NCBI GenBank assembly: GCA_900544195.1
Contig: UQUJ01000001.1
Span: 45,342-109,341 of the forward strand
Source: an uncultured Alistipes sp.
GTDB lineage: Bacteria > Bacteroidota > Bacteroidia > Bacteroidales > UBA932
Direction: 5' to 3'
Length of the DNA stretch: 64,000 nucleotides
Notes under the pieces: generated by a model
Database searches by the model: none
Told to the model about the DNA's origin: nothing
What the model saw: the letters and a program-made list of their open reading frames with translations, nothing else
Program-made: the position numbers and the translations under genes
In this document: positions 23,201 through 64,000 of the stretch, piece after piece
How the letters are laid out: each line of letters opens with the position of its first letter
How positions within the stretch are numbered: position 1 is the stretch's first letter

Positions 23201-23330
23201 TGACTGTACCGCTTACGGATCCTGCCCTGTCCTGGGCCGCCGCCGCGGCTGAGAACGACACGAACAGAACGATGGCTGCCACTACGGTCGCCATTCCTCT
23301 GAGTGTCGAAGATTTGATTCTGTTAAACAT
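20253..23330 (-). CDS. susC: SusC/RagA-family TonB-dependent transporter (start set at MFNRIKSS; the longer ORF to 23393 runs into a repeat element)
   Basis: Signal peptide, CarbopepD_reg N-domain (VSGTVKDANGPVVGAAVFVKGGTTGETTDIDGKF), plug block (LIVVDGVP, ALYGAVAANGAIMITTK), barrel ending KLNF. ATG at 23330-23328 verified. Confidence 0.9.
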   Translation of the reverse strand: MFNRIKSSTLRGMATVVAAIVLFVSFSAAAAAQDRAGSVSGTVKDANGPVVGAAVFVKGGTTGETTDIDGKFRLGNLKANDVITVSIIGYETKEIVWNGQATLDIVILEEATALKGVVVTAMGMVRQSESLTYAAETVGGKDVNDIKSINMINSLQGKSAGLVITPNSTGAGGSSKILFRGNKSINGSNQPLIVVDGVPVMQNITSSQVASNYGGERDGGDVMSTINPDDIKSITLLKGASAAALYGAVAANGAIMITTKSAAAGKVNVTVSSNTTAESPMVLPKFQNNYGMSDNGTYSWGSKLSSKAPNYLKKFFRTGFTTNNTFAVSGGNDSFGAYFSYGNVYSEGMTPENEYRSHNFNTKVNFTVLDNIKIEASAKLTNQHIENQSASGFLWNPLTGAYLFPRGEDWDHYKNNYEVYDASRSCYVQNWTNTKQQQYSNPYWVLNRQKPVVDRNRYEFGGSVRWDIIKDLYVQGRLRYERGEEHFVHNAYASSTGDLYPMGRMKDNRYFSDQMYGDVLVGYNHNWNDTFSLSVTTGSSFTHSKTGNVDLWAEGTQFTAPGNGNVYYPNIFTPNNYYGNMSSVGKGGHWNTEKRLNAVFATAQFGYKEGLFIDVTARNDWSSALAFTDNVSFFYPSVGASFLLNKFADLGPAVDLVKFRASYSIVGNDVPVYMTNLLYSLGSQGSISAPDSAPFRTLKPEMTHSIEAGFDGAFFNNRLNVSATWYKTNTKNQFFSVASPYESGLRNRYVNAGNVENQGIEMTASWYEQFSNDFSWETGVNFSYNNNKIVELVDELPNGLTLSNFGGAKIILKEGGSYGDLYVRQILRDESGKIKKNDAGQPILGDDNNDQLKHVGNMNSKVYAGWSNSFRYKNFNLSMLIDARFGGKVISMTEATLDGWGVSQRSGEARDAGSITVDGVSFDPRAWYETTGASNFNSPYANENYVYSATNVRLRELSFGYTFRNLLGNGKNVTASIIGRNLFFFYKDAPCDPDVSAGTGNGWQGIDMFALPTSRSFGLNLKLNF

Positions 23331-23363
23331 AATAATAAGATATTGGTAGTGTTTTCTATAGTT

Positions 23364-23462
23364 GAGTCCACTTGAAAAAGTACCATTCGCCACTTTTTAC
23401 CCCCGTTGGAAGTACCTGTGTGGCACATATTTTTCAAAAAAAAGACTTTTTCAAGTGGGCTC
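23364..23462. repeat. Palindromic MITE-like element P (99 bp, termini GAGTCCACTTGAAAAAGT / ACTTTTTCAAGTGG.CTC), complete copy
   Basis: Exact reverse complement of 43257-43355; the right half also appears at 638-698. Confidence 0.85.
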
Positions 23463-26613: not shown

Positions 26614-26847
26614 CTATGCCTTGTGCCAGCTGGCGGAAGATTCTTGGATGATCTCATCAACCAGAAAGGCGTCACTCATATTCTGCAGACCGTTTCTTAA
26701 GTCGTTGAGATTGCAGTAGGTCTTTGAATTATAGAAAACAGCCATCGCCTTGTCTTCGGAAATGTCCAGCCTTTTGGCTAAAAGGGAGATGACTCTGGCA
26801 TATTTCATTTGGAGCAGAGTCTCATTTATTAAAGGATTTCCGTTCAT
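26614..26847 (-). CDS. Small protein, DUF3791-like (third gene of overlapping triad)
   Basis: 77 aa; start overlaps the stop of the upstream gene by 4 nt; paralogous in size and helical character to 27338-27565. Confidence 0.55.
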   Translation of the reverse strand: MNGNPLINETLLQMKYARVISLLAKRLDISEDKAMAVFYNSKTYCNLNDLRNGLQNMSDAFLVDEIIQESSASWHKA

Positions 26848-27341
26848 TGTTCTTCCTCCTTTATTTCACGCGCCTCAACAAATGTCAAGTGATTATCGAT
26901 AATGTTCTGGTTAAGAACGCAGATCTGATTGTTCGGCTTTTCATAAATCAATCTTTGAAGAGCCTCGTTTTCGGAAATCAAGCCAGAGGAGTATAACTCG
27001 ATTGTGTTGAATATCCTGTCGTTTGCTATTCCGCCTTCCACAATGTCAAACTGTCTCCAGTCGGAGCCTCCTTTCCTGTTGGAAATCACAAAATTCAGCC
27101 ATTCGGCGTTGTATTCATCGAAATGGAGGTATTGGTAGTCTCCGTTTGCAATTGCGGATGAATCCAGTTCATAGATATTGAGATATTTCTGTTTGCCTTG
27201 ATTCAAAGGTCTTGAGGCCCAGGATATTGCTTGAGCCTCCAAAGTTGTCAGATAGAATCCTTTGCCGAAGTCCAGATGATTCCGTCCGATATTGGCGAGC
27301 GGCTTGTCGACTATTGATGTGGAGCCGTGAAATACTTTCAT
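26844..27341 (-). CDS. DUF3990-like protein (possible H-Y-E type ADP-ribosyltransferase-fold domain)
   Basis: 165 aa; ordered motifs VFHGS ... GKGFYLTT ... QFDIVEGG resemble the H-G-S / aromatic-Y / catalytic-E pattern of ART folds; flanked by two small paralogous genes with 4-nt overlaps. Confidence 0.5.
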   Translation of the reverse strand: MKVFHGSTSIVDKPLANIGRNHLDFGKGFYLTTLEAQAISWASRPLNQGKQKYLNIYELDSSAIANGDYQYLHFDEYNAEWLNFVISNRKGGSDWRQFDIVEGGIANDRIFNTIELYSSGLISENEALQRLIYEKPNNQICVLNQNIIDNHLTFVEAREIKEEEQ

Positions 27342-51256: not shown

Positions 51257-52411
51257 ATGGATAAAACTTATACAGACATGATTATGATGAATCGAATCAC
51301 CGTTGCCTGCGTTGTTTTAGCCGGGTGCGTCACAATGTTTTCAAGCTGCCGAAAAGACAAGATTGAGCCTCCGGTTCCTCTTGACCCCGACAACATTGCT
51401 GTCAGGGAAGACAGGAAGCCGTTCCACAAGTCCGACCCCATGACGGGGAAAACGCCTTCCGCCAAGGTCAGCAGTGACAAATTGAAGCTGCATTTCTTCG
51501 GCTGGGGCGAGGAACAGGACTTCTCCTTCAACCTTATATTCCCGAAGGACAAGGAATATGAAAGGGTCATCATCGCCTATACTATGACAAGTTTCTTCGA
51601 AGGACCAGCTTCCTATGACAACACAACCATGCTTTTTGTGCGCAACAAGACAGACGGTCAATGGTACGAACTTACAAGGGCGTTCACCCCATACGGAAAC
51701 GCGTTCAACAGCAGTTGGAGCAAGACCTTCTGGATAGATGTCTCTGAATATTCCTCCATGCTCTCCGGGGACACGGAGTTCCGGCTGTACTACGGCGGGT
51801 TCGACGCGACCCCGACAAGAAGCCACGCCGTCAGGCTGGACTTCAATCTCTACGAAGGCAAGCCGTCGAAAAAAGTCGTGTGGACATCCAAGGTCTACGA
51901 TTCCAGCCGTGACGGCAATTCCGGCTATAGGGGCTGGTCCTACGGCGTGAAGGGTCATGACATCGAGGACGCTTCCAGATTGGGCAAAAGGGAGTTCACC
52001 CTGCCGCAGGAAGTCAAATCCCTGTTGATGAAAGTGGCCGTGAGCGGCCATGGTCACGATCAGGGAAGATTCATAGAAAGAACGGGTTACGTGACAAGAA
52101 ACGCTGCCGAGTTCGATGAGAACACGTACACCATCGTGATCAACGGAGTCACCCAGAAAAAGACCGGAAGAATCTTCTACAGCAACAAGGACAACTACCC
52201 TCAGGCCGGGACCTATCTCTATGACAGGGCCAACTGGGCTCCCGGAAATCCGCTGAATGTGCATTACTGGACGATTACTCCGCCGGAAAGTTCCCGAAGG
52301 TTGTCTCTGGACCTCAACCTTGAGAAGTTCGAGTCTCAGTTCACCGACCCGAAAGCCGAAGGTTGCGCGCAGTACATAGTCGAAGTCGATCTCTTCGGCC
52401 TCAGCGACTAG
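51257..52411 (+). CDS. Peptide-N4-(N-acetyl-beta-glucosaminyl)asparagine amidase F (PNGase F) homologue, lipoprotein
   Basis: Lipobox MFSSC. Blocks VRNKTDGQWYELTRAFTPY, DVSEYSSMLSGDTEFRLY and VSGHGHD parallel the VKNKTTGEWYEIGRFITPY, DVTDFKSLLSGNTELKIY and ISGWGHA blocks of Elizabethkingia PNGase F as I remember that sequence. Confidence 0.75.
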   Translation: MDKTYTDMIMMNRITVACVVLAGCVTMFSSCRKDKIEPPVPLDPDNIAVREDRKPFHKSDPMTGKTPSAKVSSDKLKLHFFGWGEEQDFSFNLIFPKDKEYERVIIAYTMTSFFEGPASYDNTTMLFVRNKTDGQWYELTRAFTPYGNAFNSSWSKTFWIDVSEYSSMLSGDTEFRLYYGGFDATPTRSHAVRLDFNLYEGKPSKKVVWTSKVYDSSRDGNSGYRGWSYGVKGHDIEDASRLGKREFTLPQEVKSLLMKVAVSGHGHDQGRFIERTGYVTRNAAEFDENTYTIVINGVTQKKTGRIFYSNKDNYPQAGTYLYDRANWAPGNPLNVHYWTITPPESSRRLSLDLNLEKFESQFTDPKAEGCAQYIVEVDLFGLSD

Positions 52412-52643
52412 CGCCCCTCTGCCCGTCGCCGTCCTGCTTCCGTGGCGTCACTGCTGACGACCTCGCACCCTTCCCGTCAAGCCTTCCGCCGAGTAGTCAT
52501 CATCATCGTCCGCGAAACCTCCCGGAAACGCTCCCGTCGCCGTCCAATTGCCCCGTTACGGCTCACCTGCAAGTCTCCGTGTCTGATATGATATAAATCC
52601 AGCCATGGAGGAACATGAAAATATAATTAAGAGAATACTTTCG

Positions 52644-52713
52644 AGGATAGATCTTTTTTCGAAGAAGGAGTGTGCCGGTGGCACATGACAGATGAAAAAA
52701 AAGAGAGATAGAC
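52644..52713. promoter_or_regulatory. Second copy of the 70-bp element with palindrome TGTGCC-GGT-GGCACA (52671-52685)
   Basis: About 88% identical to 24031-24100; 35 bp upstream of the small ORF 52748-52966 and 372 bp upstream of the esterase gene. Confidence 0.5.
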
Positions 52714-53084
52714 CGGAAAGATTCCTTAAGATGATGCAGCTTGTTTTTTGAAGGTTACTAAGGTAGATTCCGTGAAAGGAAGTACCTTTGTAGTCATGGA
52801 TAAGAGCACAGCACAAGCAATGCTCTACGAGCGCTACCTCGGTTTCATTCTTCCCGATGGTATGTTGGATTTTTCGAACTGGTCTGGATGGAGAGATGTT
52901 TCTCACGGCCATGGAGGCGAAGAAGGAAGTTGCGTACACCGGCATACTGCACATACATCTTATTGATGGAGAATTATCTAGGTAGCGCTATGGCCGGCGT
53001 CCGTTTGCGCCCCACCGGTGGCAAAAAGGATTAAAGGCACCGTGCTGACAATTGTGGGTGTTGGAAAAAGGGAAGTGCTTGTAG

Positions 53085-54143
53085 TTGATGCTAAAAATAT
53101 TGAATATGAGGAAAATAGCCTTTTTGATGGCGCTGATGCTGTCCGTGTGTCCGCTCGGCGCCGGGATGTGGGTCTCTGCGCGGGAACTGACTCCGCGCTG
53201 GACTTTGGAATATTCACGGAAAGACACTTCGGCGCTTTTCATGGACATCTACTCTCCGGCGGAGGGGAGCGTGACGGAGATTGACGGCCGCAGGAAGCCG
53301 ACGATCCTCTATGTGTTCGGAGGCGGGTTCATGGAAGGGAACAGGCGTGACGGGACGGCTATGGAGTGGTTCCGGGATCTGACCGATGATGGCTATGGGG
53401 TGGTGGCGATTGACTACCGCCTTGGCTTGAAGGGGGTCAGGGGCGTTACCGCCTCGGAGTTCGTCGTGCTGTTGGAAAGGGCTATAAACCTTGCGGTTGA
53501 GGATCTGTTCAGCGCGACATCCTATCTGATCGAGCATCAGGATGAGCTGGGCATAGATCCGTCCGCCCTTGTGGTCGCGGGATCCTCCGCCGGTGCGATA
53601 ACCGCGTTGCAGGCTGAATATGAGATCTGTAACGGAACGCCCGTCGCGTCGGTGCTGCCGGAGGGCTTCAACTATGCCGGCGTGATGTCCTTCGCCGGAG
53701 CGCTGCTTGTCAAAGGAGGTGCTATTGAATATTCCCGAAAACCTTGTCCGACACTTTTGATGCACGGCACGAAGGATGACATCGTGCCTTATGAGGTTAC
53801 CAGTTACGGCGGCTACTCGTTCCGTGGCTCGTCAGCCCTGGCCAAGGCGTTGTCTGACAACGGTTATGACTATCGCATCTACCGGTACCTTGGCAACAAT
53901 CACACTGTCGCCGGCTTTATGCATTTCACTCTGGACATAGAAAGAGATTTCTTGGAGCGTAACGTGATGCAGGCTGTCCGTCTGAACGTTGACGCTCTGA
54001 TAGAAGACCCGTCCCTGCCATATTACCCCTCAGGTAACAGCAATCTTTACGACATCAAGACCGATAGGGCAGGCTCAGCGACCAAAAGGGGCGCTCCTTT
54101 AGTCTCAGGTAACAGCAATCTTTACGACATCAAGACCGATTGA
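53085..54143 (+). CDS. Secreted alpha/beta-hydrolase carboxylesterase/lipase
   Basis: Signal peptide; oxyanion-hole region YVFGGGFMEG; nucleophile elbow GSSAG; the C-terminus carries a 69-bp tandem duplication (SGNSNLYDIKTD twice). Confidence 0.75.
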   Translation: MMLKILNMRKIAFLMALMLSVCPLGAGMWVSARELTPRWTLEYSRKDTSALFMDIYSPAEGSVTEIDGRRKPTILYVFGGGFMEGNRRDGTAMEWFRDLTDDGYGVVAIDYRLGLKGVRGVTASEFVVLLERAINLAVEDLFSATSYLIEHQDELGIDPSALVVAGSSAGAITALQAEYEICNGTPVASVLPEGFNYAGVMSFAGALLVKGGAIEYSRKPCPTLLMHGTKDDIVPYEVTSYGGYSFRGSSALAKALSDNGYDYRIYRYLGNNHTVAGFMHFTLDIERDFLERNVMQAVRLNVDALIEDPSLPYYPSGNSNLYDIKTDRAGSATKRGAPLVSGNSNLYDIKTD

Positions 54144-54551
54144 CCAGACGCGAGATGGAGACGATGGGGAAGAGTCGTGAATCGCAACAGCCTGATTATC
54201 TGTGGACAAGACATCCGTCTTTGGTCGGCATGGACTAAAGGGAATCGTTTATGTTGCTCTTAATGAGAAGATTACTGCTCATCTGCTGATACAAAGCAGG
54301 TGAGCTCTAATGCTTTATTGATAAAGTTATTAGCGCATTTCCTTTGGACGCGGCTCCGCATTTTCTCGCTGTATTCAACCGAGTTCTGTCATGCTTCTAA
54401 TGGCAGAAAAGTATTATTTATAGTTTTATACATAATGCACTAATGCTCAATTAATTACAAACTATAGTAAAAAATTGGATTAATAATATTATATTTTATT
54501 GTTTGTATATTGATTGAAAAGTATTATACACAACACTAAAAATAAAGCCAG

Positions 54552-57068
54552 ATGAAGTCTTTCAGATTATCACTTCTCGCATCCTTTTCATTAATGGCTG
54601 TCTCGTTTCAGGCAAAGGCAGGGGAATGGATTCGGATCAATCAGGTCGGTTATCTTCCCGATGCCTCCAAAGTGGCGGTTTATGTCAGCAATGACGTGGA
54701 ACCGCATGAAATCCCATCATTCTCCGTCGTGGACGCATCCACCGGAGAAACGGTGTATGCCTCAAGACCGGAGGATGTAAGGAACACAGGTGTGATGGGT
54801 GAACTCAAAACAACTGTAAGACTCGACTTTTCCGCGCTCACGGCGGAAGGCAACTATTTCATTGTGGCTGGCGGATTAAAATCCTCCGTGGTAAGGATCA
54901 GCGCTGGGGCCTATGACGGAGCCGCTGATTTTGTCCTGAACTATATGCGTCAGCAACGTTGTGGCTGGAATCCATTCATGAGGGACAGCTGCCACGTCAA
55001 GGACGGCTACATTCGCTATCATCCTACAAAGGAGGGGCAGTGGATAGACGTGCGCGGGGGATGGCATGACGCTTCGGACTGCCTTCAGTACACGACCACT
55101 TCGGCCAACGCCATCTATCAGATGATGTTTGCCTACCAGAGTAATCCGGAAGCTTTTGGGGACGAGTATCTTGCCGACGGTACTCCGGGCGGGAACGGCA
55201 TCCCTGACATAATTGATGAGATCTACTGGGGCTTGGACTGGCTTGACAGGATGAATCCGGAGCCGGGTGAGTTCTACAACCAGATCGCGGATGACCGCGA
55301 TCATGTAGGAATGCGTGAGCCTGCCAAGGACATCGCGGACTACGGGTGGGGCAAGAACAATGGTCGTCCGGTCTACTTTGTCAGCGGTGAGCCTCAGCAG
55401 AGGTACAATCGCACCAATGCAACCACAGGCATTTCCAGCACAGTGGGGAAGTTCGCGTCAGATTTCGCGCTTGGCTCGAAGATTCTGGCTCCGTTCTATC
55501 CTGAGTTCGCCGCAAGGATCGGGGCTAAGGCTGAGGGAGCCTATCAGCTTGGAATAGATAAGCCGGGAGTTTGCCAGACGGCGTCTGTGGTCTCTCCATA
55601 CATCTATGAGGAGGACAACTGGGTTGATGACATGGAACTTGCCGCGGTGGAAATGTACCATAGCACAGGAGATGCGAAGTATCTCTCGCAGGCCATTGAA
55701 TATGCCAGAAGGGAGCCGGTGACTCCGTGGATGGGAGCGGACAGCGCGAGACACTATCAGTGGTACCCGTTCATGAATATGGGACACTATCACCTTGCCA
55801 AAGATGGCAACGCCAGAGTCTCGGCGGAGTTTATCCGCAACCTCAGATCCGGAATCCAGAGGACATTCGAGAAGGCAGAAGGGACCCCTTTCCTTTATGG
55901 GATACCATCAATCTGGTGTTCCAATAATCTTACGACCGCAATGCTCACCCAGTGCATTCTCTATCGTCATCTTACTGGAGACGAGACCTACAAGGAGATG
56001 GAAGGCGCGCTCAGGGATTGGCTGTTGGGGTGCAACCCTTGGGGAGTCTGCATGATTGTTCAGATGCCCGGGGCTGAGGTCTATCCTACCCAGCCGCACT
56101 CGTTCATCGTCAATCTCAACCTTGGCAACACAAGTGGAGGACTTGTTGACGGACCTGTCTACAGCGCGATATTCTCCGGTTTAAAGGGCGTGAATATGGA
56201 AGGTGGGATCAACTATCTTGATGTCCAGCCCGGCACTATGGTCTACCATGACAGTACCCATGACTATTCAACGAACGAGCCTACTATGGACGGCACGGCG
56301 TCTCTGACATTCCCGTTCTCTGCCTATCAGATGGAGGGAGCCGCACTTAAGGGGGTAAGGAAGGATAAGAACGGTGTGGTCAGCAGAGTCAATGTCAACG
56401 AAAAGAAGGTCTATCTTGTCTTCACGGCGCATTACAGTTCGGATGACAAAGGACATTTTGAGAATTTTGACGGTGTGGTTCCCGTCCTGAACACCCTTAA
56501 GGCCAAAGGTGTGAAGGGCTCTTTCTTCCCGACCGGCGAGTGCTTCAGGCAACCAAGGTACAAGGCTCCGATCAAGAGAATCATCCGGGAAGGGCATTAC
56601 CTTTCAGGCCATTCAGACAAGCATCTGCTTCTGTGTGAGGGTGGGGTCAGTCTTGTGTCCTCTGATTCCCTTGTCCGGGACATCCGCGGTATGGAGGCGG
56701 AGCTTGAGCGTTTCGGACTCAACAAAGACCGGTTCCGCTGGATGATACCTCCTTACGAGACCTGCGACGAGGCTTCCGCCTATGTTCTCAAAGGTTTGGG
56801 CTACAAACTGGTGAAGCCTACCTCAGGACTTGTCACGGGGCTTGACTGGGCCGCAGAGGGGGAGACCGCCTACAGAAGTGCAGGGTCGTTGGTTCAGAAC
56901 ATCTGGGACTTTGATGACAAATATGGTCTCAACGGGGCCGTCATCCTCGTCCATGCGATGAACTATCCTGGCAGGGCAAAGGAAGACCGGGTATATTCCC
57001 ATCTCGGAGAAATCATTGACGGGCTTCGCGCGCGTGGATATTCCTTTGGTACATTCAAAGAACTCTAA
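54552..57068 (+). CDS. Two-domain enzyme: glycoside hydrolase family 9 (with N-terminal Ig-like CelD_N domain) fused to polysaccharide deacetylase (CE4/NodB) domain
   Basis: Signal peptide; Ig-like N-domain; GH9 catalytic block RGGWHDASD (cf. GGWYDAGD); C-terminal 240 aa with NodB-like blocks (VYLVFTAHYSSDDKGHF, SFFPTGECF, GHYLSGHSDKH). Confidence 0.7.
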   Translation: MKSFRLSLLASFSLMAVSFQAKAGEWIRINQVGYLPDASKVAVYVSNDVEPHEIPSFSVVDASTGETVYASRPEDVRNTGVMGELKTTVRLDFSALTAEGNYFIVAGGLKSSVVRISAGAYDGAADFVLNYMRQQRCGWNPFMRDSCHVKDGYIRYHPTKEGQWIDVRGGWHDASDCLQYTTTSANAIYQMMFAYQSNPEAFGDEYLADGTPGGNGIPDIIDEIYWGLDWLDRMNPEPGEFYNQIADDRDHVGMREPAKDIADYGWGKNNGRPVYFVSGEPQQRYNRTNATTGISSTVGKFASDFALGSKILAPFYPEFAARIGAKAEGAYQLGIDKPGVCQTASVVSPYIYEEDNWVDDMELAAVEMYHSTGDAKYLSQAIEYARREPVTPWMGADSARHYQWYPFMNMGHYHLAKDGNARVSAEFIRNLRSGIQRTFEKAEGTPFLYGIPSIWCSNNLTTAMLTQCILYRHLTGDETYKEMEGALRDWLLGCNPWGVCMIVQMPGAEVYPTQPHSFIVNLNLGNTSGGLVDGPVYSAIFSGLKGVNMEGGINYLDVQPGTMVYHDSTHDYSTNEPTMDGTASLTFPFSAYQMEGAALKGVRKDKNGVVSRVNVNEKKVYLVFTAHYSSDDKGHFENFDGVVPVLNTLKAKGVKGSFFPTGECFRQPRYKAPIKRIIREGHYLSGHSDKHLLLCEGGVSLVSSDSLVRDIRGMEAELERFGLNKDRFRWMIPPYETCDEASAYVLKGLGYKLVKPTSGLVTGLDWAAEGETAYRSAGSLVQNIWDFDDKYGLNGAVILVHAMNYPGRAKEDRVYSHLGEIIDGLRARGYSFGTFKEL

Positions 57069-57080
57069 CGTTCAGACATT

Positions 57081-58040
57081 ATGGCGGTAATAGCGATAGA
57101 CCTTGGTGGTACAAAGGCGCTTGGGGCGGTCTTCGATGCTTCGGGCAAGATGTGCGCAAGGCAGGTTGAACTCCTTGACGGAGCGAAGGGTGATGCGGTA
57201 GGAGACATTGTCTTAGACCTCATCAAGGCTCTTTGCGGCTCCTGTCGGGGAGAAAGGGTCGAGGCGGTGGGAATATGTGTGCCAGGGATAGTCTTCTCTA
57301 AGCAGGATGTTGTCTGGGCCCCGAATATTCCCGGTTGGGAAAGATACCCGCTCAAAAAAAGGATCTCCGGTCTGGTCGGCCCTGACGTCAAGGTGGAGAT
57401 TGAGAGCGACAGGACATGCTACATTCTTGGCGAGGTCTGGAAAGGAGCCGCCAAAGGATGCGGCAATGCCATCTACATCGCTGTCGGGACTGGTATCGGG
57501 GTCGGTATTCTGGTTGACGGCAGGGTGCTCCATGGCGCAGAGGACATCATCGGAGCCGCAGGCTGGATGGCTCTTCATTACCCTTACCAGCAGGAGTATA
57601 TTCCTACCGGATGTTTTGAATATTATGCCTCAGGCAACGGCATCGCGACCCAGATTCACCGGGCGCTGCGCTGCAACCGCAACTACACCGGGTTGCTGAG
57701 CGGCAGACCTATAGATGAGATCACTTCCCATGACGTGTTTGACGCGTACCATAAAGGCGACCGTCTGGCCGCGAAAGTTCTTGACAAGGCTGTGGAGATG
57801 TGGGGAATGGCCGCCGCTAATCTGGTCAGCATCCTGAATCCTGAGAAAGTGATCTTCGGAGGAGGAGTCTTCGGACCTGCTGAGGAGTTTATCGGGAGGA
57901 TTTACGATGAAGCCTGCAAGTGGGGGCAGCCTATAGCGATGGATCACGTGGAGTTCCGCGTCTCAGAGGTTCAGGGAGAAGCTGCTCTTTATGGTTCGGC
58001 CTATCTGGCTTTCAAGACTATAGGACAACAAGAGAAGTAG
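57081..58040 (+). CDS. ROK-family sugar kinase (glucosamine/GlcNAc/glucose kinase type)
   Basis: N-terminal AIDLGGTK ATP motif, ROK signature region with GIGVGILVDGRVLHG, 319 aa. Confidence 0.8.
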   Translation: MAVIAIDLGGTKALGAVFDASGKMCARQVELLDGAKGDAVGDIVLDLIKALCGSCRGERVEAVGICVPGIVFSKQDVVWAPNIPGWERYPLKKRISGLVGPDVKVEIESDRTCYILGEVWKGAAKGCGNAIYIAVGTGIGVGILVDGRVLHGAEDIIGAAGWMALHYPYQQEYIPTGCFEYYASGNGIATQIHRALRCNRNYTGLLSGRPIDEITSHDVFDAYHKGDRLAAKVLDKAVEMWGMAAANLVSILNPEKVIFGGGVFGPAEEFIGRIYDEACKWGQPIAMDHVEFRVSEVQGEAALYGSAYLAFKTIGQQEK

Positions 58041-58047
58041 GAAGGCC

Positions 58048-59196
58048 ATGCGTGGATATTCAACATCATCAGTTTTCGTCTCGGCTTGCGCCGGGATGGC
58101 GTTTTTCGGGGTGGCGATGCTTTCCCTGGCTCCGATTCTCGGACAGTTGAACGGCATTGTGGACGGAGCCAACGGCTTGCCGTCGACAATGTCTCTTGGA
58201 ATCCTTTTGGGTACAATAGTGTTCGGTCCTGTGGTTGACCGTTTCGGCTACAAATGGCTTCTCGCGCTGAGTTCCGTCCTTGCTCTCGCGGGGCTTCAAG
58301 GCCTTGCGAACTTCAGGGAGATAGGAATGCTTCATCTTTCCATCTTCTGTCTCGGAATAGGCGGAGGCATACTCAACGGCGAGACCAATGCCCTTGTGTC
58401 AGACATCTATGACGATGACAAGAGGGGAGGACGCCTCGGTCTGCTCGGCGCGTTCTACTGCGTCGGAGCATTGCTGTGGACCTTGCTGAACTACTTCATC
58501 GTGGATTTCACAATCACTCTCAACGCAGTGTCGGCGGTGATGGCGGCGTTCATCGTCTTCTTCGTGTTTACCCGTTTCCCTGCCGCCAAGCCATCGGAGA
58601 ACGTGTCGATGAGGAAGACAGCCGGGCTGCTGAGATACCCTGCTCTTATTCTCTTTGCGGTCATCCTTTTCTTTGAGAGCGGTTTTGAGGGAGCGCAGGG
58701 TAATTTCACGGTCTCGTACCTAAGTGACAAAGAAGGGATGAGCATGGCCTCCGCCACTCTTGCCATGACTTGGTTCACCGTCGGGATGTTGGCTGGTCGT
58801 CTGCCTCTTGGCTTCATCCTTGGAAAACTTGGAGCTATCGGAACCCTATATTCCTATCTGTCCGCCGCTCTTGCAGGAGTGATGCTGCTCCTTCTTTGCT
58901 CCGGGAGCGTTTTTGCGGCCTACCTTTCGATGATTCTGATCGGATTTGGAGTCGGCGCGACTTATCCTGTCATTCTCAACTACATCGGAGGAGCCTTCCG
59001 GGAGCTGTCCGGCACGGCGATCTCGATTGCGTTGTTCATTGCGCTGCTGGGGCAGTACACTTTCAACAAATTGACCGGAGCCGCTTTTGACGCCGGGCGC
59101 CAGATGCTCTTGCCTGTTCTTCTTGTCGTTGCGGTTGCATGCATGATGACGCTTGTCCCTTTGGCAGTCAAGGTCTCGTCGCGGATGAAAGGATGA
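58048..59196 (+). CDS. MFS transporter
   Basis: 382 aa, ~12 hydrophobic segments, MFS signature-like GR..D.FG.K. Confidence 0.75.
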   Translation: MRGYSTSSVFVSACAGMAFFGVAMLSLAPILGQLNGIVDGANGLPSTMSLGILLGTIVFGPVVDRFGYKWLLALSSVLALAGLQGLANFREIGMLHLSIFCLGIGGGILNGETNALVSDIYDDDKRGGRLGLLGAFYCVGALLWTLLNYFIVDFTITLNAVSAVMAAFIVFFVFTRFPAAKPSENVSMRKTAGLLRYPALILFAVILFFESGFEGAQGNFTVSYLSDKEGMSMASATLAMTWFTVGMLAGRLPLGFILGKLGAIGTLYSYLSAALAGVMLLLLCSGSVFAAYLSMILIGFGVGATYPVILNYIGGAFRELSGTAISIALFIALLGQYTFNKLTGAAFDAGRQMLLPVLLVVAVACMMTLVPLAVKVSSRMKG

Positions 59197-59250
59197 CACT
59201 TTTATGAATATTCAAACAACTCAATAGTTAAACTTTTTAATCTACAAACA

Positions 59251-60012
59251 ATGTTAGCAAACGAATGGAAACAAAACGCCTTCGATGTCATGAATGAGAT
59301 CGAGGCTACACAGATGGAACAAATCAAGAAAGTTGCCGAGGTGATGGCTGATTGCATCCAGTCAGGTCATCTTGTACACACTTTCGGCTGCGGTCATGCC
59401 AATCTTCCGATCGAGGAGATGTATCCGAGGATCGGTGGCATCGTAGGATTCCATCCTCTTTGCGAGCTCCCTTTGACATTCTTCACCCACATCGTAGGCG
59501 AGATGGGTATCAACCAGTTCCTGTGGCTTGAGAGAGAGGAAGGCTATGGCCAGGCGATAATGCAAAGCTGGAACTTCGACAAGAATGATCTTCTCTGGAT
59601 CTTCTCGCACACCGGAGTGAACGCTGTCAACATTGATGTCGCCAATGAGGCTCACAAGCGTGGCATGAAGGTCATCGTCTGCGGATCGGCAGGCAGGACC
59701 GGTGACAAGAAACCTCGCCACTCAGGCGGAAAGAACCTTTTCCAGATCGCTGATTATGTGGTTGACACATGCTGCCCTCTTCAGGATGCGTCCGTGACTT
59801 TGAAGAATCACTTCGACAAGATCGGACCTCTTTCCACAATGGCTTCCATCACATGTGTCTGGATGATCATCACGACAGTCTGCGAGATTCTTGCGGACCG
59901 TGGAATGAAACTTCACATCAACCCGTCCCACAACATACCGGGCGACACCACCGCAAGGGAGCGTCTTGCCGAGTGTATCGCCGCCTATAAGGAAAGCGTG
60001 AAAGGCTGCTGA
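59251..60012 (+). CDS. SIS-domain protein (single sugar-isomerase domain; putative aminosugar-phosphate deaminase/isomerase)
   Basis: 253 aa; Rossmann-like SIS layout (GHLVHTFGCGHAN ... LLWIFSHTGVN ... KVIVCGS). Confidence 0.6.
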   Translation: MLANEWKQNAFDVMNEIEATQMEQIKKVAEVMADCIQSGHLVHTFGCGHANLPIEEMYPRIGGIVGFHPLCELPLTFFTHIVGEMGINQFLWLEREEGYGQAIMQSWNFDKNDLLWIFSHTGVNAVNIDVANEAHKRGMKVIVCGSAGRTGDKKPRHSGGKNLFQIADYVVDTCCPLQDASVTLKNHFDKIGPLSTMASITCVWMIITTVCEILADRGMKLHINPSHNIPGDTTARERLAECIAAYKESVKGC

Positions 60013-60153
60013 TCAGGTTCGGAAAACACTGAAACTATTATTGAACTCTCCTCTGTCTGTCCTGTCGGAACCCGAGTATTCCGGAAGGCTCCCAGGGACA
60101 GGGATAGGGGAGTTTTATCTTTACCAATTATATTCAACCCAAAAACAGTTGTT

Positions 60154-63100
60154 ATGCTACACACAGAAAAACGCTCGCTCATTCCTTGGACACTCAAGGT
60201 CTGCGCCGCTGTGCTGTCGCTTTTCGGGATGAGTGTCATCCCCATGGGCGCACAGTCTGTTCTGAGCGGTACCGTGGTCACAGCCTCGGACGGACAGCCT
60301 ATTGTAGGAGCTTATGTCCTTGTAAAAGGTACCACTGTAGGAACCACTACGGAAGTTGACGGTACCTTCAGGATTGAAGCATCCTCCGGAACCATTCTGG
60401 AAGTCTCTCAGATGGGCTATGTCACACGTCAGGTGAAAGCTTCGGATGGGATCAGGATCGCTCTTGATGAAGACCAGCTTTGGCTGGATGACGTTGTTGT
60501 CGTCGGCTATGGCGTACAGAAAAAGAAGCTTGTCACAGGCTCCACCGTGCAGGTAAAGGGCGATGACATCGCCAAACTCAACACCGTGGATGTCCTTGGA
60601 GCGTTGCAGTCACAGTCTCCGGGAGTCAACATCGTCCAGAACAATGGCTTCCTTGGATCCGGCTTCAAGGTCAACATCCGTGGTCTTGGCACAATCGGTG
60701 ATTCCGCGCCTCTTTATGTCGTTGATGGAGTTGCCAACGGCAGCATCTCCGCGCTCAATCCGTCCGACATTGAATCTGTTGATGTGCTGAAAGACGCCGC
60801 ATCAGCCGCGATCTACGGAGCAAGGGCGGCAAACGGTGTCATCCTCATCACCACCAAGAAAGGAAAAGAGGGACAGGCTTCTGTCACCTATGATGGATAC
60901 TACGGTCTCCAGAATCTTTATAAGATTCCTACTCTGTTGAACGCCAAAGAGTTCATGCAGATTCAGGATGAATCCAGAATCATGGACGGTCTTGCTCCTT
61001 ACAATTGGGAGAACCACATCGGTCCACGTCTCTATAAGGCCATAAAGGATGGCTGGACAGGTACCAACTGGCTCAAGGAGATCATCAATGAGGACGCTCC
61101 TGTCCAGAATCATTCGGTTAATGTCACTGGCGGGTCGAAGACGGGTACATATTCATTAGGACTTGCCTACACGGGGCAGGACGCCACGATGGGCGTGCCT
61201 TCATCCATTCCTCACCTTGACCGCTATAACTTCAGGGTGAACTCTGAGAACACAGTCTTCAAAAAAGGTTCTTTGGATGTGTTGAAGGTCGGCCAGACCC
61301 TTAACTACCGCTACCAGAAAACCACAGGATCCTTCGCTACGGAGGGCATATACTGGAACGGAGTCCACAACATGCTTGTGATGAGTCCGCTTATGCCGGC
61401 CTATAACTCTGACGGAAGCTACTATGTCTTTGAAGACAGGGTGGCAGACAGCTACGTCTGGGACACCGCCAACGGTGCGGCGAAGAACCCGATCGCCTAC
61501 ATGGACTATACCTCCAACCAGAATGTGTCCAAGAGTCATTATCTTCAGGCCAGTGTCTATGCGGTTCTCCAGCCGATAGAAAGGCTCAACATCAAGAGTC
61601 AGTTCGGTTACATGATGAGCGCTTCAAGCTACCGCTCCTACATGCCGGAATATGACCTTGACGCCACTGCCAAGAGGGAGATGGATCAGGTCTCACAAAG
61701 CATGTCTCTGTCTAACCGCTGGTCTTGGGAAAACACGGCCAGTTACTCATTCAATATCAATGAGCATCAGATTGACGCCCTTGTGGGAAGCTCTCTGGAG
61801 AAGTGGGGCTACGGTGAGTCTCTCAGCGCAAGCAATGTGGATTCCAATTTCGGAGACCTTGAGCATGCTTATCTTTCAAATGTGTCCACTACACCTTCAT
61901 CAATGTCGAGCATCAGCGGATCACCTTCCCAGAAGAACTCCATAGCATCCTTCTTCGCCCGCGCGAACTGGAACTGGAAGGAAAAGTACATGGCTTCGGC
62001 CACGATGCGCGTTGATGGATCATCCGTTTTCGCAAGAGGCTATCGTTGGGGCTATTTCCCTTCAGCATCAGCTGGTTGGGTCATCACCAACGAAGACTTC
62101 TTCAAGGGGCTTGGACTTGACAGTGTGCTGGACTTCCTCAAGCTTCGCACGTCTTGGGGACAGAATGGAAACTGCAATGTGACCGGTTTCCAATACCTTT
62201 CGCTTGTGACCTCGAACAACGGTTACGGTGGCTATGTCTTCGGTGATGTCATCGACAAGCGCGAAATAGGCTCCTATGCCTATAAACTGACCAACTCCGA
62301 ACTGAAATGGGAAACATCAGAGCAAACCAACATCGGTTTCGATGCAAGACTGTTCGGGAATCGTCTCGGAGTGGAGTTTGACTGGTACAACAAACTTACA
62401 AAAGACTGGCTTGTGGTGGCTCCTGTGCTTTACTCCTATGGTGCCAACGCTCCATACGTCAATGGTGGAAATGTCAAGAACCAAGGTTTGGAATTCGGTC
62501 TGCACTGGAATGATAGCGTCGGAGAAGTGTTCTATGGCGTAAATCTGACCGGAGCGCACAATAAGAATAAAGTCACCAAGATCGCCAATGCCGATGGGAT
62601 CATCCACGGAACGGGAAGTATTCCATGGGAAGGAGCCGAGGAACTCTATAGGGCAGAGGTAGGCATGCCTATCGGTTACTTCTACGGCTACAAGACTGCG
62701 GGAGTGTTCCAGAATCAGGCTGAGATTGATGCTTACAAGGGAGCTCTCCTGAACGGTGAAAACACAAACCCTGGCGATGTCATCTATGTTGATTCCAACA
62801 ATGACGGAGTCATTGATGCAAATGACCGTACCATGATCGGAAACCCGCATCCGGACTTCACCCTTGGGCTTTCCTTCAATATTGAGTGGAAAGGAATAGA
62901 TCTCTCAATCTCTGGTTTCGGATCGTTCGGACAGCAGATCTTCAAGTGCTACAGGGACTTCTCCTCATCACCTCTGAACAACTACACGACCGACATCCTG
63001 AAGAGATGGACGGGAGAGGGTTCTTCCAACAAGTATCCTCGCCTTGCCAGCTCTTCAAACAGCAACTGGAACAGGATCTCTTCTCTTTACATAGAAGATG

Positions 63101-63342
63101 GAGACTATTTCAAGGTGCAGAACATAACCCTCGGCTACGACATTGCCAAGGCGTTCAAGAAGTTCCCTCTCAAGACTTGCCGTGTCTATGTGACAGGACA
63201 GAATCTCTTTACATTCACTTCGTACTCCGGAATGGATCCGGAGATCGGCTACGGTGGTGGCAGCGGCTGGGCGCAAGGCATTGACTTGGGCTACTATCCA
63301 AGTGCCCGCACCATCCTTTTCGGAGTCAACCTCAAATTTTAG
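60154..63342 (+). CDS. susC: SusC/RagA-family TonB-dependent transporter
   Basis: 1062 aa; signal peptide; CarbopepD_reg N-domain (GTVVTASDGQPIVGAYVLVKGTTVGTTTEVDGTF); plug block (LYVVDGV, AIYGARAANGVILITTK); barrel ending NLKF. Confidence 0.92.
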   Translation: MLHTEKRSLIPWTLKVCAAVLSLFGMSVIPMGAQSVLSGTVVTASDGQPIVGAYVLVKGTTVGTTTEVDGTFRIEASSGTILEVSQMGYVTRQVKASDGIRIALDEDQLWLDDVVVVGYGVQKKKLVTGSTVQVKGDDIAKLNTVDVLGALQSQSPGVNIVQNNGFLGSGFKVNIRGLGTIGDSAPLYVVDGVANGSISALNPSDIESVDVLKDAASAAIYGARAANGVILITTKKGKEGQASVTYDGYYGLQNLYKIPTLLNAKEFMQIQDESRIMDGLAPYNWENHIGPRLYKAIKDGWTGTNWLKEIINEDAPVQNHSVNVTGGSKTGTYSLGLAYTGQDATMGVPSSIPHLDRYNFRVNSENTVFKKGSLDVLKVGQTLNYRYQKTTGSFATEGIYWNGVHNMLVMSPLMPAYNSDGSYYVFEDRVADSYVWDTANGAAKNPIAYMDYTSNQNVSKSHYLQASVYAVLQPIERLNIKSQFGYMMSASSYRSYMPEYDLDATAKREMDQVSQSMSLSNRWSWENTASYSFNINEHQIDALVGSSLEKWGYGESLSASNVDSNFGDLEHAYLSNVSTTPSSMSSISGSPSQKNSIASFFARANWNWKEKYMASATMRVDGSSVFARGYRWGYFPSASAGWVITNEDFFKGLGLDSVLDFLKLRTSWGQNGNCNVTGFQYLSLVTSNNGYGGYVFGDVIDKREIGSYAYKLTNSELKWETSEQTNIGFDARLFGNRLGVEFDWYNKLTKDWLVVAPVLYSYGANAPYVNGGNVKNQGLEFGLHWNDSVGEVFYGVNLTGAHNKNKVTKIANADGIIHGTGSIPWEGAEELYRAEVGMPIGYFYGYKTAGVFQNQAEIDAYKGALLNGENTNPGDVIYVDSNNDGVIDANDRTMIGNPHPDFTLGLSFNIEWKGIDLSISGFGSFGQQIFKCYRDFSSSPLNNYTTDILKRWTGEGSSNKYPRLASSSNSNWNRISSLYIEDGDYFKVQNITLGYDIAKAFKKFPLKTCRVYVTGQNLFTFTSYSGMDPEIGYGGGSGWAQGIDLGYYPSARTILFGVNLKF

Positions 63343-63350: not shown

Positions 63351-64000
63351 ATGAATATGAAAAAGATCATAATCAATATTGTCCTTGCCGTGACCACGGT
63401 GTTTGCGCTGTCAGCGTGCGAGGACTTTCTCGACACCAAGAATCTTACCCAGAAGACAACCGAGAACTTCCCGGAGACAGAGAAAGACGCGCAGGAGATG
63501 GTCACCGCCATCTATGCCCATCTGCTTTTCGAGAGTCCTGAGACATCCTCTCAGTTCTATGTCGCCCAGCTTGCCGGAGACGATTGCCTTGGCGGGAACC
63601 TCTCGTACTCAGGGAACTGTGCCACGAACTTCCTCTTGTACAAGGACAATCTTAACGGGCTGCTTTCCTTGTGGGATCGCGACTACACTCTCATCAACAG
63701 GGCCAACAGCGCCCTCGCGTCATTCGGGAATGTGAAATCATGGTCATCCGAGGAGGAAATGAACCGCCTTATCGGCGAGACCTATTTCCTTCGCGCGTTT
63801 GCCTACAATGAGCTTGTGCAGATTTTCGGCGGTGTTCCGCTTAGGACCAACACCGAGACTGTCAACCTTCCGAGGGCAAGCGTGGAAGAAGTTTACACCG
63901 TCATCGAGAGCGATCTCCTCCAGGCCATAAGCTTGATGCCGGACAAAATCTACACCGCCGGCTCTCCGATGACCGGTCATGCCACCAAGTATGCGGCAGA
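63351..64000 (+). CDS. susD: SusD/RagB-family lipoprotein, 5' part (runs off the window end)
   Basis: ATG at 63351, 8 bp after the SusC stop. Translation MNMKKIIINIVLAVTTVFALSACEDFLDTKNLTQKTTENFPETEKDAQEMVTAIYAHLL...YFLRAFAYNELVQIFGGVPL is a canonical SusD N-terminus. The gene is open to the window end and is absent from the supplied ORF table. Confidence 0.85.
   Translation, partial: MNMKKIIINIVLAVTTVFALSACEDFLDTKNLTQKTTENFPETEKDAQEMVTAIYAHLLFESPETSSQFYVAQLAGDDCLGGNLSYSGNCATNFLLYKDNLNGLLSLWDRDYTLINRANSALASFGNVKSWSSEEEMNRLIGETYFLRAFAYNELVQIFGGVPLRTNTETVNLPRASVEEVYTVIESDLLQAISLMPDKIYTAGSPMTGHATKYAA

Follow-up and report, generated by a model that had tools for sequence, protein, structure and literature searches.

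The block of genes headed by a GH9-CE4 fusion enzyme reads, with moderate confidence, as that half of a polysaccharide utilization locus (PUL) in which monosaccharides are released and then consumed, the PUL being directed at a β-1,4-linked N-acetylglucosamine polymer, the likely targets being chitin, partly de-acetylated chitin or chito-oligosaccharides of fungal or dietary origin. The host is an uncultured human-gut Bacteroidales, Candidatus Cryptobacteroides, and the PUL, which the block opens, spans roughly 23 kb. We observed a gene content, domain identities, conserved catalytic residues and a recurrent co-localisation that are described below, starting with the features present in the window, i.e. 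the whole stretch of 64,000 nucleotides analysed:

51257-52411, + strand, PNGase F homologue, lipoprotein (PDB 1pnf match, 2e-17)
53085-54143, + strand, alpha/beta-hydrolase esterase of the BD-FAE family (Pfam)
54552-57068, + strand, GH9-CE4 fusion gene, 838 aa (open reading frame call and Pfam)
aa 1-23 of the fusion, + strand, signal peptide (sequence)
54618-54884, + strand, Ig-like CelD_N domain of the fusion (Pfam, aa 23-111, 1.7e-19)
54912-56312, + strand, GH9 domain of the fusion (Pfam Glyco_hydro_9, aa 121-587, 3.4e-65)
56391-57065, + strand, CE4 domain of the fusion (Pfam Polysacc_deac_1, aa 614-753, 4.7e-10)
57081-58040, + strand, ROK-fold sugar kinase, 319 aa (Pfam ROK, 2.4e-43)
58048-59196, + strand, MFS permease, 382 aa (Pfam MFS_1, 1.1e-25, also Sugar_tr)
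59251-60012, + strand, UPF0309 / SIS_2 protein, 253 aa (Pfam SIS_2, 1e-40)
60154-63342, + strand, SusC-type TonB-dependent transporter, 1062 aa (NCBIfam TIGR04056, 1.6e-258)
63357-64000, + strand, SusD-like lipoprotein, truncated at the window end (translation)

The E-values of these domain matches are far beyond chance, and the gene set put forward in the earlier note (a GH9 with an Ig-like domain joined to CE4, a ROK kinase, an MFS permease and a single-SIS-domain protein) is entirely present, with both GH9 and CE4 confirmed by profile search. The SusC/SusD pair is indeed directly downstream, and the PNGase F is a genuine homologue. The gaps separating fusion, ROK, MFS, SIS and SusC genes are 12, 7, 54 and 141 nt, and the full length of SusD is 603 aa, as read from the complete gene in loci L001-L004. 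Upstream, a 408-nt AT-rich spacer lies between the esterase and the operon, and this esterase is found at such loci in the same species only; its membership in the operon is doubtful.

Past the window the PUL continues with the remainder of SusD, a 301-aa lipoprotein, DUF4369, DUF6057 and PD40 proteins, a GH18, NagA and a GH3, no regulator gene being seen in the locus. The GH18 is a lipoprotein with an intact DGVDIDWE motif. Among solved structures it is closest to chitinases (ChiW 5gzu, 9e-49), and it scores 106 bits against ChiD versus 31 bits against Endo H; judged by its sequence it is chitinase-type, not ENGase-like. The GH3 is of NagZ type (KHFPGHGDTEVDSH signature, NF003740 match), and NagA scores above the TIGR00221 cutoff. 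Parts of this PUL recur in varied orders in Muribaculaceae and other Bacteroidales families: GH18-ROK-MFS-SIS-SusC-SusD-x-x-GH18-GH18-GH9CE4 in Muribaculaceae, ROK-MFS-SIS-SusC-SusD-hyp301-GH18-GH9CE4 in HGM05231, GH9CE4-ROK-MFS-SIS-NagA in L005, and further arrangements in L143 and L098; in L009, L086/L087 and L143 the ROK, MFS and SIS genes are accompanied by SusC. Of the 37 groups into which SIS loci were dereplicated, 29 have an MFS gene adjoining SIS. The commonest CAZyme partner is GH18: 6 of 79 species loci have it beside GH9-CE4, and 7 of the 37 groups have it within about 10 kb of SIS. Taken together, the chitinase-type GH18, NagA, the NagZ-type GH3 and the recurrence of these parts elsewhere result in a well supported amino-sugar, chitin-like target, and the view that operon and SusC/SusD pair form one amino-sugar PUL stands.

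The fusion protein starts with a type-I signal peptide (MKSFRLSLLASFSLMAVSFQAKA, followed by GE), no lipobox was found in its sequence and no space is left at its C-terminus for a secretion domain, which makes a periplasmic location more likely than the secreted one first proposed, the signal peptide itself being present. Neither is the fusion unusual in Bacteroidales, since at least 557 species-level genomes carry it. Most GH9-CE4 genes are lone, in housekeeping-gene surroundings outside PULs, and we found no paper characterising the fusion in the literature. Two CE4 types with 34% mutual identity are both fused to one GH9 (76% identical between clades), and the architecture is retained down to 30–45% overall identity, which argues that the GH9 and CE4 activities would be coupled.

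Close relatives of the fusion (58–90% identity, 39 sequences aligned) all share the GH9 catalytic residues D173, D176 and E576, which are missing from some relatives further removed. No solved GH9 is more than 24% identical to this domain, the nearest being of endoglucanase type (3x17, 24%; BoGH9A, 20%; overall range 17–24%), whereas the characterised exo-glucosaminidases rank below them at 14–16%; assignment to the exo-β-D-glucosaminidase type is thus not borne out. The Ig-like N-terminal domain does not discriminate between the two kinds of GH9, as it is common to both, and in the AF2 model the active-site loops have pLDDT <50, so that pocket and cleft topologies cannot be told apart. In the CE4 domain, H687, S688, H691, Y735, E736, D765 and H801 are invariant in the same 39 relatives, and the His-His pair, catalytic His and motif-4 Asp are retained. 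The expected D-H-H metal triad can be assigned only in part: its two histidines are there, but the motif-1 Asp pair is non-canonical, with a Lys of the window protein at the position of the metal-binding Asp, and motif 3 lacks its Arg.

The SIS protein matches NF002805 (215.6 bits versus a cutoff of 135) and, in the PDB, 3cvj and 9eol; on these grounds it is assigned to the UPF0309/NagS family as a NagS/BH3325 homologue. The GlmD/NagB-II (GlmS-isomerase-like) type of GlcN-6-P deaminase, to which it had been likened, was ruled out by its UPF0309 membership, on the NagS/MurQ/GmhA branch. The residues essential in NagS, H53, R64, E94, D179 and N228 (PMC12680351), correspond to H49, R60, E94, D179 and N228, and sugar-contact residues are changed (S54 to A, S91 to L, G227 to H). 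NagS is the only characterised relative, a GlcNAc-6-P dehydratase that does not bind GlcN-6-P, and its homologues at 26–36% identity are inactive on GlcNAc-6-P. As a tentative best single guess, the window protein might catalyse GlcN-6-P deamination or isomerisation. In a Bacteroides locus with an SIS identical to that of B. uniformis, the trio has a canonical NagB three genes away, and many related Bacteroides loci have NagB at the same spacing, as judged from matching gene sizes; a second deaminase would be redundant in those loci.

The ROK protein has no HTH domain and belongs to a divergent subfamily, in which ESDRTCY replaces NDANxA and GAAGWMAL replaces GxAGExGH (29 orthologues checked for motif conservation) and the zinc Cys motif is reduced. 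Alignment to the glucokinases 2qm1, 3vgk and 3vov places a Trp at the Glu of ExGH and an invariant Arg after the catalytic Asp, substitutions that would not be expected in a cationic GlcN site. A hint towards the amino-sugar reading comes from ROK-family proteins of B. uniformis and B. caccae, which make B. thetaiotaomicron fitter on glucosamine (PMC11300592). The MFS permease has about 10–12 predicted TM segments and matches TsgA weakly; we infer that its solute is an amino sugar.

In the route that we infer, including all substrates, the order in which CE4 and GH9 act and the SIS reaction, the surface GH18 lipoprotein just past the window would cleave the polymer and SusC/SusD would import the oligomers, from which the NagZ-type GH3 would strip GlcNAc in the periplasm. 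Residues refractory to GH3 would be de-N-acetylated by CE4, and GH9, as an inverting enzyme for which the acetamido group would not be required, would cleave the GlcN-containing β-1,4 bond. The monosaccharides would be taken up by the MFS permease and converted to 6-phosphates by the ROK kinase, and NagA and the UPF0309 enzyme would turn the amino-sugar phosphates towards fructose-6-P. The earlier note had the operon encoding every step of chitobiose degradation: the genes are there, but the roles given to GH9, CE4, SIS and ROK are borne out only in part.

A variant compatible with this route, which we regard as unlikely, has CE4 as a binding or pseudo-enzyme module and GH9 alone as catalyst, for example removing GlcN already present in partly de-acetylated chitin. 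The non-canonical motifs 1 and 3 would fit, as would the pseudoenzyme BA3943 among the best structural matches, the orthologues with GH9 and no CE4, and more distant fusion relatives in which catalytic residues of CE4, GH9 or both are clearly missing; the seven invariant CE4 residues and the retention of two distinct CE4 types on the same GH9 speak against it. Salvage or recycling of peptidoglycan glycan (muramic acid) is likewise unlikely, though a serious rival. Here a PdaA-like CE4 would de-acetylate peptide-free MurNAc in glycan strands, GH9 would free muramic acid, the NagZ-type GH3 would remove GlcNAc, MFS would import the acidic amino sugar for phosphorylation by ROK, and a MurQ/NagS-like SIS would eliminate the 3-O-lactyl substituent, yielding GlcN-6-P or GlcNAc-6-P for NagA and NagB. 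In agreement, the best sequence matches of CE4 are PdaA-type enzymes (TIGR02884, 2j13, 1w17), the fold neighbours of SIS after NagS are MurQ and GmhA, with catalytic residues kept and sugar contacts changed, and the ROK Arg is invariant; one lineage has an operon ROK-MFS-SIS-Porin_10-SLT (SLT, lytic transglycosylase), 2 loci have an AmiA-like amidase close to GH9-CE4, and GH9 (76%) and SIS (about 70%) show housekeeping-like conservation, with most GH9-CE4 genes outside PULs. However, the commonest partners are chitinase-type GH18s and not muramidases, amidases or peptidases, the SLT linkage is confined to that lineage and the PUL encodes no amidase; that we know of no GH9 or bacterial GH18 established on peptidoglycan also counts against this explanation.

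The chitobiose core of N-glycans, which the earlier note had proposed beside chitin, is a very unlikely target. PNGase F would free N-glycans, whose trimmed GlcNAc-GlcNAc would be de-acetylated and split by GH9-CE4, and the PNGase F lipoprotein is indeed encoded on the same strand, 2.1 kb before the operon, with several other SusC/D pairs in the window. Yet it occurs at loci of the window's own species only (L001-L004, L093 group). The other GH9-CE4 and SIS loci examined lack it, those with the same PUL in other lineages included. This and the chitinase-like GH18 weaken the N-glycan reading and leave chitin as the part that stands, and genes for a mannosidase, galactosidase or sialidase are absent from the locus. 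Periplasmic processing of a self-made poly-GlcNAc-type exopolysaccharide, comparable to PgaB or PelA, we consider highly improbable: the architecture and the housekeeping, non-PUL setting of most copies are compatible with it, and in 2 further dereplicated Bacteroidales groups SIS has a GH18-CE4-GT2 poly-GlcNAc-synthase-like gene beside it, but a synthase is absent from the recurrent GH9-CE4 neighbour families and the closer loci examined, and several lineages place the gene within an import-type SusC/D PUL. A plant β-glucan enzyme, with GH9 as endoglucanase or xyloglucanase and CE4 as acetyl-xylan-type esterase, is scarcely credible; endoglucanases and BoGH9A come nearest among solved GH9s, and in one source a protein from the 90%-identity cluster of the fusion is called 'endoglucanase', but the identity is only 17–24% and the recurrent partners GH18, NagZ-type GH3 and NagA are all amino-sugar genes.

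The preferred chitin-like reading has counterparts in several known systems. PgaB and PelA, with GH153 and GH166 domains, belong to biosynthetic operons beside a synthase. They likewise join a CE4-fold de-acetylase and a glycoside hydrolase for an amino-sugar polymer in a single periplasmic polypeptide, whereas the window fusion uses GH9 and sits in an import PUL or alone. The Thermococcus/Pyrococcus chitin pathway comprises the de-acetylase Dac, the exo-glucosaminidase GlmA, a GlcN kinase and the deaminase GlmD. With it (see PMC6566704, PMC9779004) the proposed route shares the succession of de-acetylation, GlcN cleavage, phosphorylation and de-amination by an SIS-fold enzyme, but no family-level homology: here CE4, GH9, ROK and SIS_2/UPF0309 stand in place of CE14, GH35, an ADP-dependent kinase and the GlmS-like double-SIS GlmD, and one polypeptide would carry out the first two steps, in the periplasm of a Gram-negative cell behind SusC/D.

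The Vibrionaceae GH9 exo-β-D-glucosaminidases VC0615, PBPRA0520 and VP2484 belong to a chitobiose operon with a GlcN kinase (PMC6096475). They resemble the window protein in their Ig/Fn3-like N-domain and GH9 barrel, in the Asp/Asp/Glu catalytic set and in the genomic link to a sugar kinase and chitin catabolism, and differ in identity (14–16%, below endoglucanases) and in lacking a CE4 fusion; their exo subgroup is defined by loop closure, which the AF2 model, with pLDDT <50 in the active-site loops, does not let one judge. The Vibrio GlcN kinase is not known to be a ROK enzyme, unlike the divergent ROK protein found here. With NagS (SCO4393, Streptomyces) and the etherase MurQ the SIS protein shares its fold (TM 0.81 to 9eol) and, with NagS, the essential H, R, E, D and N and the Ser/Thr phosphate site, at about 25% identity and with the three sugar contacts replaced by A, L and H; orthologues of NagS occur in Streptomycetaceae only (identity of at least 58.7%, synteny with dmdR1), the activity being lacking in more distant homologues.

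In the NagX-NagP-NagK-NagA route of Bacteroidota and Proteobacteria, periplasmic glucosamine is re-acetylated (PMC9007349). Periplasmic glucosamine, amino-sugar import by an MFS permease and subsequent phosphorylation are common to both schemes, but the present locus has a de-acetylase, and none of its genes was reported with a NagX-family domain. The chitin loci of Flavobacterium johnsoniae and other Bacteroidota combine SusC/SusD, surface GH18, a periplasmic exo-GlcNAc-ase and cytoplasmic Nag enzymes, a set that the present PUL resembles in each of these components; it departs from them in that no regulator gene was seen and in carrying the recurrent DUF4369-DUF6057-PD40 module, the NagZ-type GH3, the GH9-CE4 fusion and the ROK-MFS-UPF0309 cassette.

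The block comprises five open reading frames on the same strand, placed as the earlier note had them and separated by intergenic gaps of 12, 7, 54 and 141 nt, and is followed by a susD gene truncated at the end of the window:

54552-57068, + strand, 838-aa GH9-CE4 fusion (Pfam CelD_N, Ig-like, aa 23-111; GH9, 121-587; CE4 Polysacc_deac_1, 614-753)
57081-58040, + strand, ROK family protein
58048-59196, + strand, MFS permease (MFS_1)
59251-60012, + strand, SIS protein of the UPF0309 family (SIS_2)
60154-63342, + strand, SusC (confirmed by NCBIfam, 1.6e-258)
63357 to the window end, SusD

The Pfam assignments of the three proteins following the fusion have strong E-values throughout. The fusion itself carries a type-I signal peptide without a lipobox and its CE4 domain extends to the C-terminus, so that a periplasmic placement is likelier. 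Upstream of the operon lies a 408-nt AT-rich spacer; a scan for sigma-70 promoters and terminators over 52400-60400, not designed for Bacteroidota, returned counts not above those of shuffled sequences. In public records an identical SIS sequence carries the name Candidatus Cryptobacteroides sp., the 90%-identity cluster of the fusion has 1638 members, and the contigs bearing the locus are ENA metagenome assemblies, one of them labelled human gut metagenome. On one same-species contig (L001, 7896-9043, equivalent to window 58048-59196) the MFS gene appears as two open reading frames of 239 and 143 aa, which is either a frameshift variant or an assembly error.

On contigs of the same species, the genes after SusD encode a 301-aa lipoprotein, a DUF4369 protein, a DUF6057 membrane protein, a PD40 beta-propeller lipoprotein, a GH18, an amidohydrolase and a GH3. 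In the GH18 the DGVDIDWE motif is intact; chitinases are its closest solved relatives (ChiW, 9e-49), and it scores 106 bits with the ChiD model against 31 bits with that of Endo H. The amidohydrolase clears the NagA equivalog cutoff, and the GH3, which also matches NF003740, carries KHFPGHGDTEVDSH, the signature of NagZ-type N-acetylglucosaminidases. As these downstream genes are amino-sugar genes, the window block is thus the leading part of an amino-sugar polysaccharide utilization locus (PUL) of about 23 kb, in which a SusC/SusD pair is accompanied by co-oriented glycan enzymes, the GH18, the GH3 and the GH9-CE4 fusion lying on the same strand. No regulator of the HTCS, ECF sigma/anti-sigma or SusR-like type is reported among the genes scanned round the operon or the downstream PUL genes listed. 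Two candidates for conserved parts of the PUL, the esterase (53085-54143) and the PNGase F homologue, were dropped, since both are confined to the species of the window. The PD40 lipoprotein (L001, 18256-19698) contains a CMNCH motif, of the haem-c-like CxxCH kind; it belongs to a module, along with DUF4369 and the multi-pass membrane protein DUF6057, which is found again beside GH18 and SIS in at least four lineages. PDB sequence searches with the MFS permease and with DUF6057 gave no useful match.

The window is PUL-dense, and holds further SusC/SusD pairs:

2421-7632, SusC/SusD pair
11604-16831, SusC/SusD pair, accompanied by DUF4998/F5_F8_type_C and DUF4959/DUF5126/DUF5000 lipoproteins at 9090-11545
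18568-23393, SusC/SusD pair

A 449-aa reading frame with a CarboxypepD_reg-like domain (16828-18177, - strand) overlaps by 4 nt the start of the SusC at 13547-16831, and may represent a split or N-terminally extended SusC. Between 26001 and 28000 the GC content falls to 0.446, against about 0.53 elsewhere, round a DUF3990 gene (26844-27341), which may mark a small insertion of foreign DNA.

The GH9-CE4 enzyme and the ROK-MFS-SIS cassette are each widespread alone and are repeatedly joined with SusC/SusD and chitinase-type GH18s; given these solo and joint occurrences, they are therefore two modules. Relatives of the fusion were found in at least 557 genomes in a scan of species-representative genomes, and among 80 of these nearly all are labelled Bacteroidales, two odd bin labels aside; carriers include B. 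cellulosilyticus, B. timonensis, Prevotellaceae, Muribaculaceae, Rikenellaceae and Parabacteroides. Across 79 loci the enzyme is mostly solitary amid housekeeping genes: any one neighbour family is present in at most 14 of them, most families being of the housekeeping type (Etf, GroEL, DnaJ, IspF, HisS), and the only informative one in this enrichment is GH18, a chitinase-type member of which adjoins the fusion in 6 of the 79. The cassette was surveyed within about 10 kb of SIS at 84 loci, drawn chiefly from the metagenome scan and dereplicated to 37 groups. MFS is present in 29 of these groups and ROK in 25, followed by GH18 (7/37), a creatininase-family amidohydrolase (6/37), SusC/SusD with the 301-aa lipoprotein (4/37) and DUF6057/PD40/DUF4369 (4/37). 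The gene orders encountered include:

Locus L005: GH9CE4-ROK-MFS-SIS-NagA
Locus L009: ROK-MFS-SIS-SusC-SusD-hyp301-GH18-GH9CE4
Muribaculaceae contigs (SIS as query): GH18-ROK-MFS-SIS-SusC-SusD-x-x-GH18-GH18-GH9CE4
One lineage: ROK-MFS-SIS-Porin_10-SLT
Another lineage: 1144-aa GH18-CE4-GT2 (PgaC/NodC-like) protein, then MFS-MFS-SIS

At one Bacteroides locus, which shares an identical SIS with B. uniformis, the trio lies outside any PUL, beside DPP-IV and LipA and three genes away from a canonical NagB; many related Bacteroides loci match it in gene sizes and order, and the ROK of the trio is also found in B. cellulosilyticus. The 1144-aa protein (L088, 3744-7178, also on L094) combines a GH18, a PgdA/NodB-like CE4 and a PgaC/NodC-like GT2 synthase, and its gene immediately precedes MFS-MFS-SIS and a creatininase-family gene; it has the look of a synthase/processing fusion for poly-GlcNAc or chito-oligosaccharides in a Bacteroidales lineage.

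The GH9 domain is a genuine family member (PF00759, 3.4e-65), with the (alpha/alpha)6 domain, the Asp pair of the DAxD motif and the C-terminal Glu; an alignment of 39 sequences shows GGWHDASD (D173, D176) and STNEPT (E576) without variation. The earlier note had likened it to exo-beta-D-glucosaminidases, and a proximity to the characterised members (VC0615/PBPRA0520) is not borne out: phmmer gives 29-31 bits to 5dgq/3h7l versus 140 bits to the metagenomic endoglucanase 3x17, the closest solved GH9 at 24% identity, with BoGH9A next, and Foldseek places the exo-glucosaminidases at ranks 17-23, at 14-16% identity. By these comparisons the domain is remote from every solved GH9. The exo-glucosaminidase subgroup is defined by loop closure, extended alpha1-2 and alpha9-10 loops shutting the -2 subsite (PMC6096475). 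In the AF2 model built from the 39-sequence alignment, the active-site loops (138-151, 173-179, 394-404 and 494-578) have pLDDT below 50, and for this reason pocket or cleft, and exo or endo action, are not readable from it. Between the clade of the window and the majority clade the GH9 domain is 76% identical, with 47% of columns invariant, and the fusion architecture is kept in representatives down to 30-45% identity; orthologues consisting of GH9 only also exist. Six distant relatives of about 755-875 aa (P0322, P0325, P0329, P0330, P0336 and P0352) align over GH9 and CE4 at 31-38% identity; they are probably non-catalytic derivatives, from which the Asp pair and/or the Glu of GH9 and/or the His pair of CE4 have disappeared.

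The CE4 domain (PF01522) adopts the NodB-homology fold, modelled with pLDDT of about 90 over residues 600-838, and has as Foldseek matches BA0150, Bc1960 and PdaC, at TM(target) of 0.75-0.83, as well as the pseudoenzyme BA3943. Of the D-H-H triad, the metal-binding His pair of motif 2 (H687-S-D-K-H691) is invariant in the 39 sequences, and the Asp is not assignable without a structure. At motif 1 (TFDD, in which the catalytic-base Asp precedes the metal-binding one), HMMER pairs D632-K633 with D-N of PdaA, the family alignment has D640 as the only invariant Asp with a 9-aa insert in the window clade, and deeper relatives read FTA[D/H][D/E]. The Arg of motif 3 (RxPY) is absent, the sequence being MIPPYE with PPYE invariant; D765 of motif 4 and L799-x-H801 of motif 5, with the catalytic His, are conserved. 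Identity in this domain is 34% between the window and majority clades and 67-74% within each; set against the 76% of GH9, this means that two CE4 types share one GH9, and in the Cryptobacteroides clade the module has either been replaced or has diverged very rapidly. Alistipes-like fusions (L076, 9953-12838; L067; L072) are longer, at 923-961 aa, the extra length being due to a low-complexity linker of about 150 aa that separates GH9 from a type-B CE4. That a CE4 is repeatedly kept on this GH9 argues that the GH9 and a putatively active CE4 work together on a beta-1,4-linked chain of N-acetylated amino sugars.

In the cassette, the ROK protein (PF00480, 2.4e-43) has the ROK/ASKHA fold without a helix-turn-helix, aligns with glucokinases and conserves DLGGT and the catalytic Asp of ESDRT. 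The sugar and zinc motifs of the family (ExGH, CxCGxxGCxE and NDxN) are altered: GAAGWMAL replaces AGExGH, SDRT replaces NDAN and the Cys motif is reduced to (C)GCFE, changes that are conserved in 29 orthologues. The specificities of known ROK kinases cannot be carried over to this subfamily. In the window protein and the 29 orthologues an invariant Arg directly follows the catalytic Asp (SDRTCY), an unusual ROK active site. In an overexpression screen, members of the ROK family from B. uniformis and B. caccae proved beneficial on glucosamine (PMC11300592); these Boba-seq hits, BACUNI_RS03225 (WP_005825067.1) and INE72_RS00960, may correspond to the ROK of the trio. An analogy of the cassette with Tannerella MurT-MurK-MurQ was also considered, and the transporter likeness, which supposed an MFS-type MurT, was dropped, as TfMurT is related to NagX (PMC9007349).

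The SIS protein consists of one PF13580 SIS_2 domain (NCBIfam NF002805) and lacks the GlmS-isomerase-like, PF01380-type architecture that its earlier description as a SIS-type GlcN-6-P deaminase calls for. Its only PDB sequence matches are BH3325 (3cvj) and NagS (9eol), which are also the nearest folds of its model (pLDDT 70; TM 0.77-0.81), followed by MurQ and GmhA; no GlmS-type, AgaS-type or deaminase structure is among the 50 fold matches listed. By these sequence and fold affinities it therefore falls outside the GlmD/NagB-II family. It could nonetheless act as a deaminase, because ring opening and abstraction of the C2 proton are common to all these enzymes; judged by homology, a MurQ/NagS-like elimination is at least as well supported. 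NagS is a GlcNAc-6-P dehydratase without GlcN-6-P binding, and its distant homologues (26-36% identity) are inactive on GlcNAc-6-P (PMC12680351). In an alignment to 9eol the essential NagS residues H53, R64, E94 and D179, with N228 (PMC12680351), correspond to H49, R60, E94, D179 and N228, and the sugar contacts are replaced (S54 by A50, S91 by L91, G227 also changed). The protein is not a NagS orthologue, the identity being about 25%; NagS orthologues, which are confined to Streptomycetaceae, share at least 58.7% identity and dmdR1 synteny.

As for the role of the whole block, we give about even chances to a chitin-type PUL. This accounts for the GH18s, the NagZ-type GH3, NagA, SusC/SusD and the poly-GlcNAc-synthase context of SIS, and the chitin-type association is the commonest in the neighbourhood surveys of both GH9-CE4 and SIS. 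It does not account for why GH9-CE4 is conserved like a housekeeping protein and sited as an orphan, why its CE4 is PdaA-like and why SIS has an affinity to NagS/MurQ, nor for the Arg at the ROK site and the NagB next to the Bacteroides trio. All of these would be explained by a route acting on peptidoglycan glycan, that is on muramic acid, which we nevertheless consider unlikely; its direct genomic support is limited to one SLT-containing operon and two amidase neighbours. Catabolism of the N-glycan core is quite improbable, since it rests on a PNGase F neighbour found solely in the window's own species, and a role on plant beta-glucan, at odds with the entire genomic context, is the most improbable of all.

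It is possible, if doubtful, that the very conserved GH9-CE4 and the ROK-MFS-UPF0309 cassette, which Bacteroidales as diverse as B. uniformis and B. cellulosilyticus and the window species have conserved, encode an undescribed amino-sugar route. This could take two forms. In one, UPF0309 would be a third, non-homologous family of GlcN-6-P deaminases, supplied by a fused de-acetylase/exo-glucosaminidase. In the other, a de-acetylation-first muramic-acid pathway would allow gut Bacteroidales to eat or recycle peptidoglycan glycan strands, with GH9 acting as an exo-muramidase-like enzyme and a NagS/MurQ-like lyase taking off the lactyl ether. Should the model proposed for the locus hold, many gut and rumen Bacteroidales, among them abundant uncultured lineages such as Cryptobacteroides and Muribaculaceae, would have a system of their own dedicated to amino-sugar polymers of the chitin or cell-wall type, the core enzyme of which belongs to no characterised GH9 subgroup. 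UPF0309, with one activity so far (NagS, 2025), would then acquire a second role, a catabolic one, in a major phylum of the gut. Since ROK-MFS-SIS occurs in well-studied, culturable Bacteroides, these questions are directly accessible to genetics and enzymology.

In open-access text we found no paper describing a GH9 fused to a CE4 and none dealing with UPF0309 in Bacteroidota, an absence which is not proof, nor anything relevant, beyond the papers cited, on chitosan PULs or on Cryptobacteroides and chitin. In general type the system is a familiar PUL; its periplasmic core enzyme and cytoplasmic cassette are uncharacterised, and each departs in at least one defining feature from the families to which the earlier note assigned them. 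In the known glucosamine route of Bacteroidota the sugar is re-acetylated in the periplasm by NagX (PMC9007349), whereas the window locus encodes a de-acetylase and so follows a different logic.
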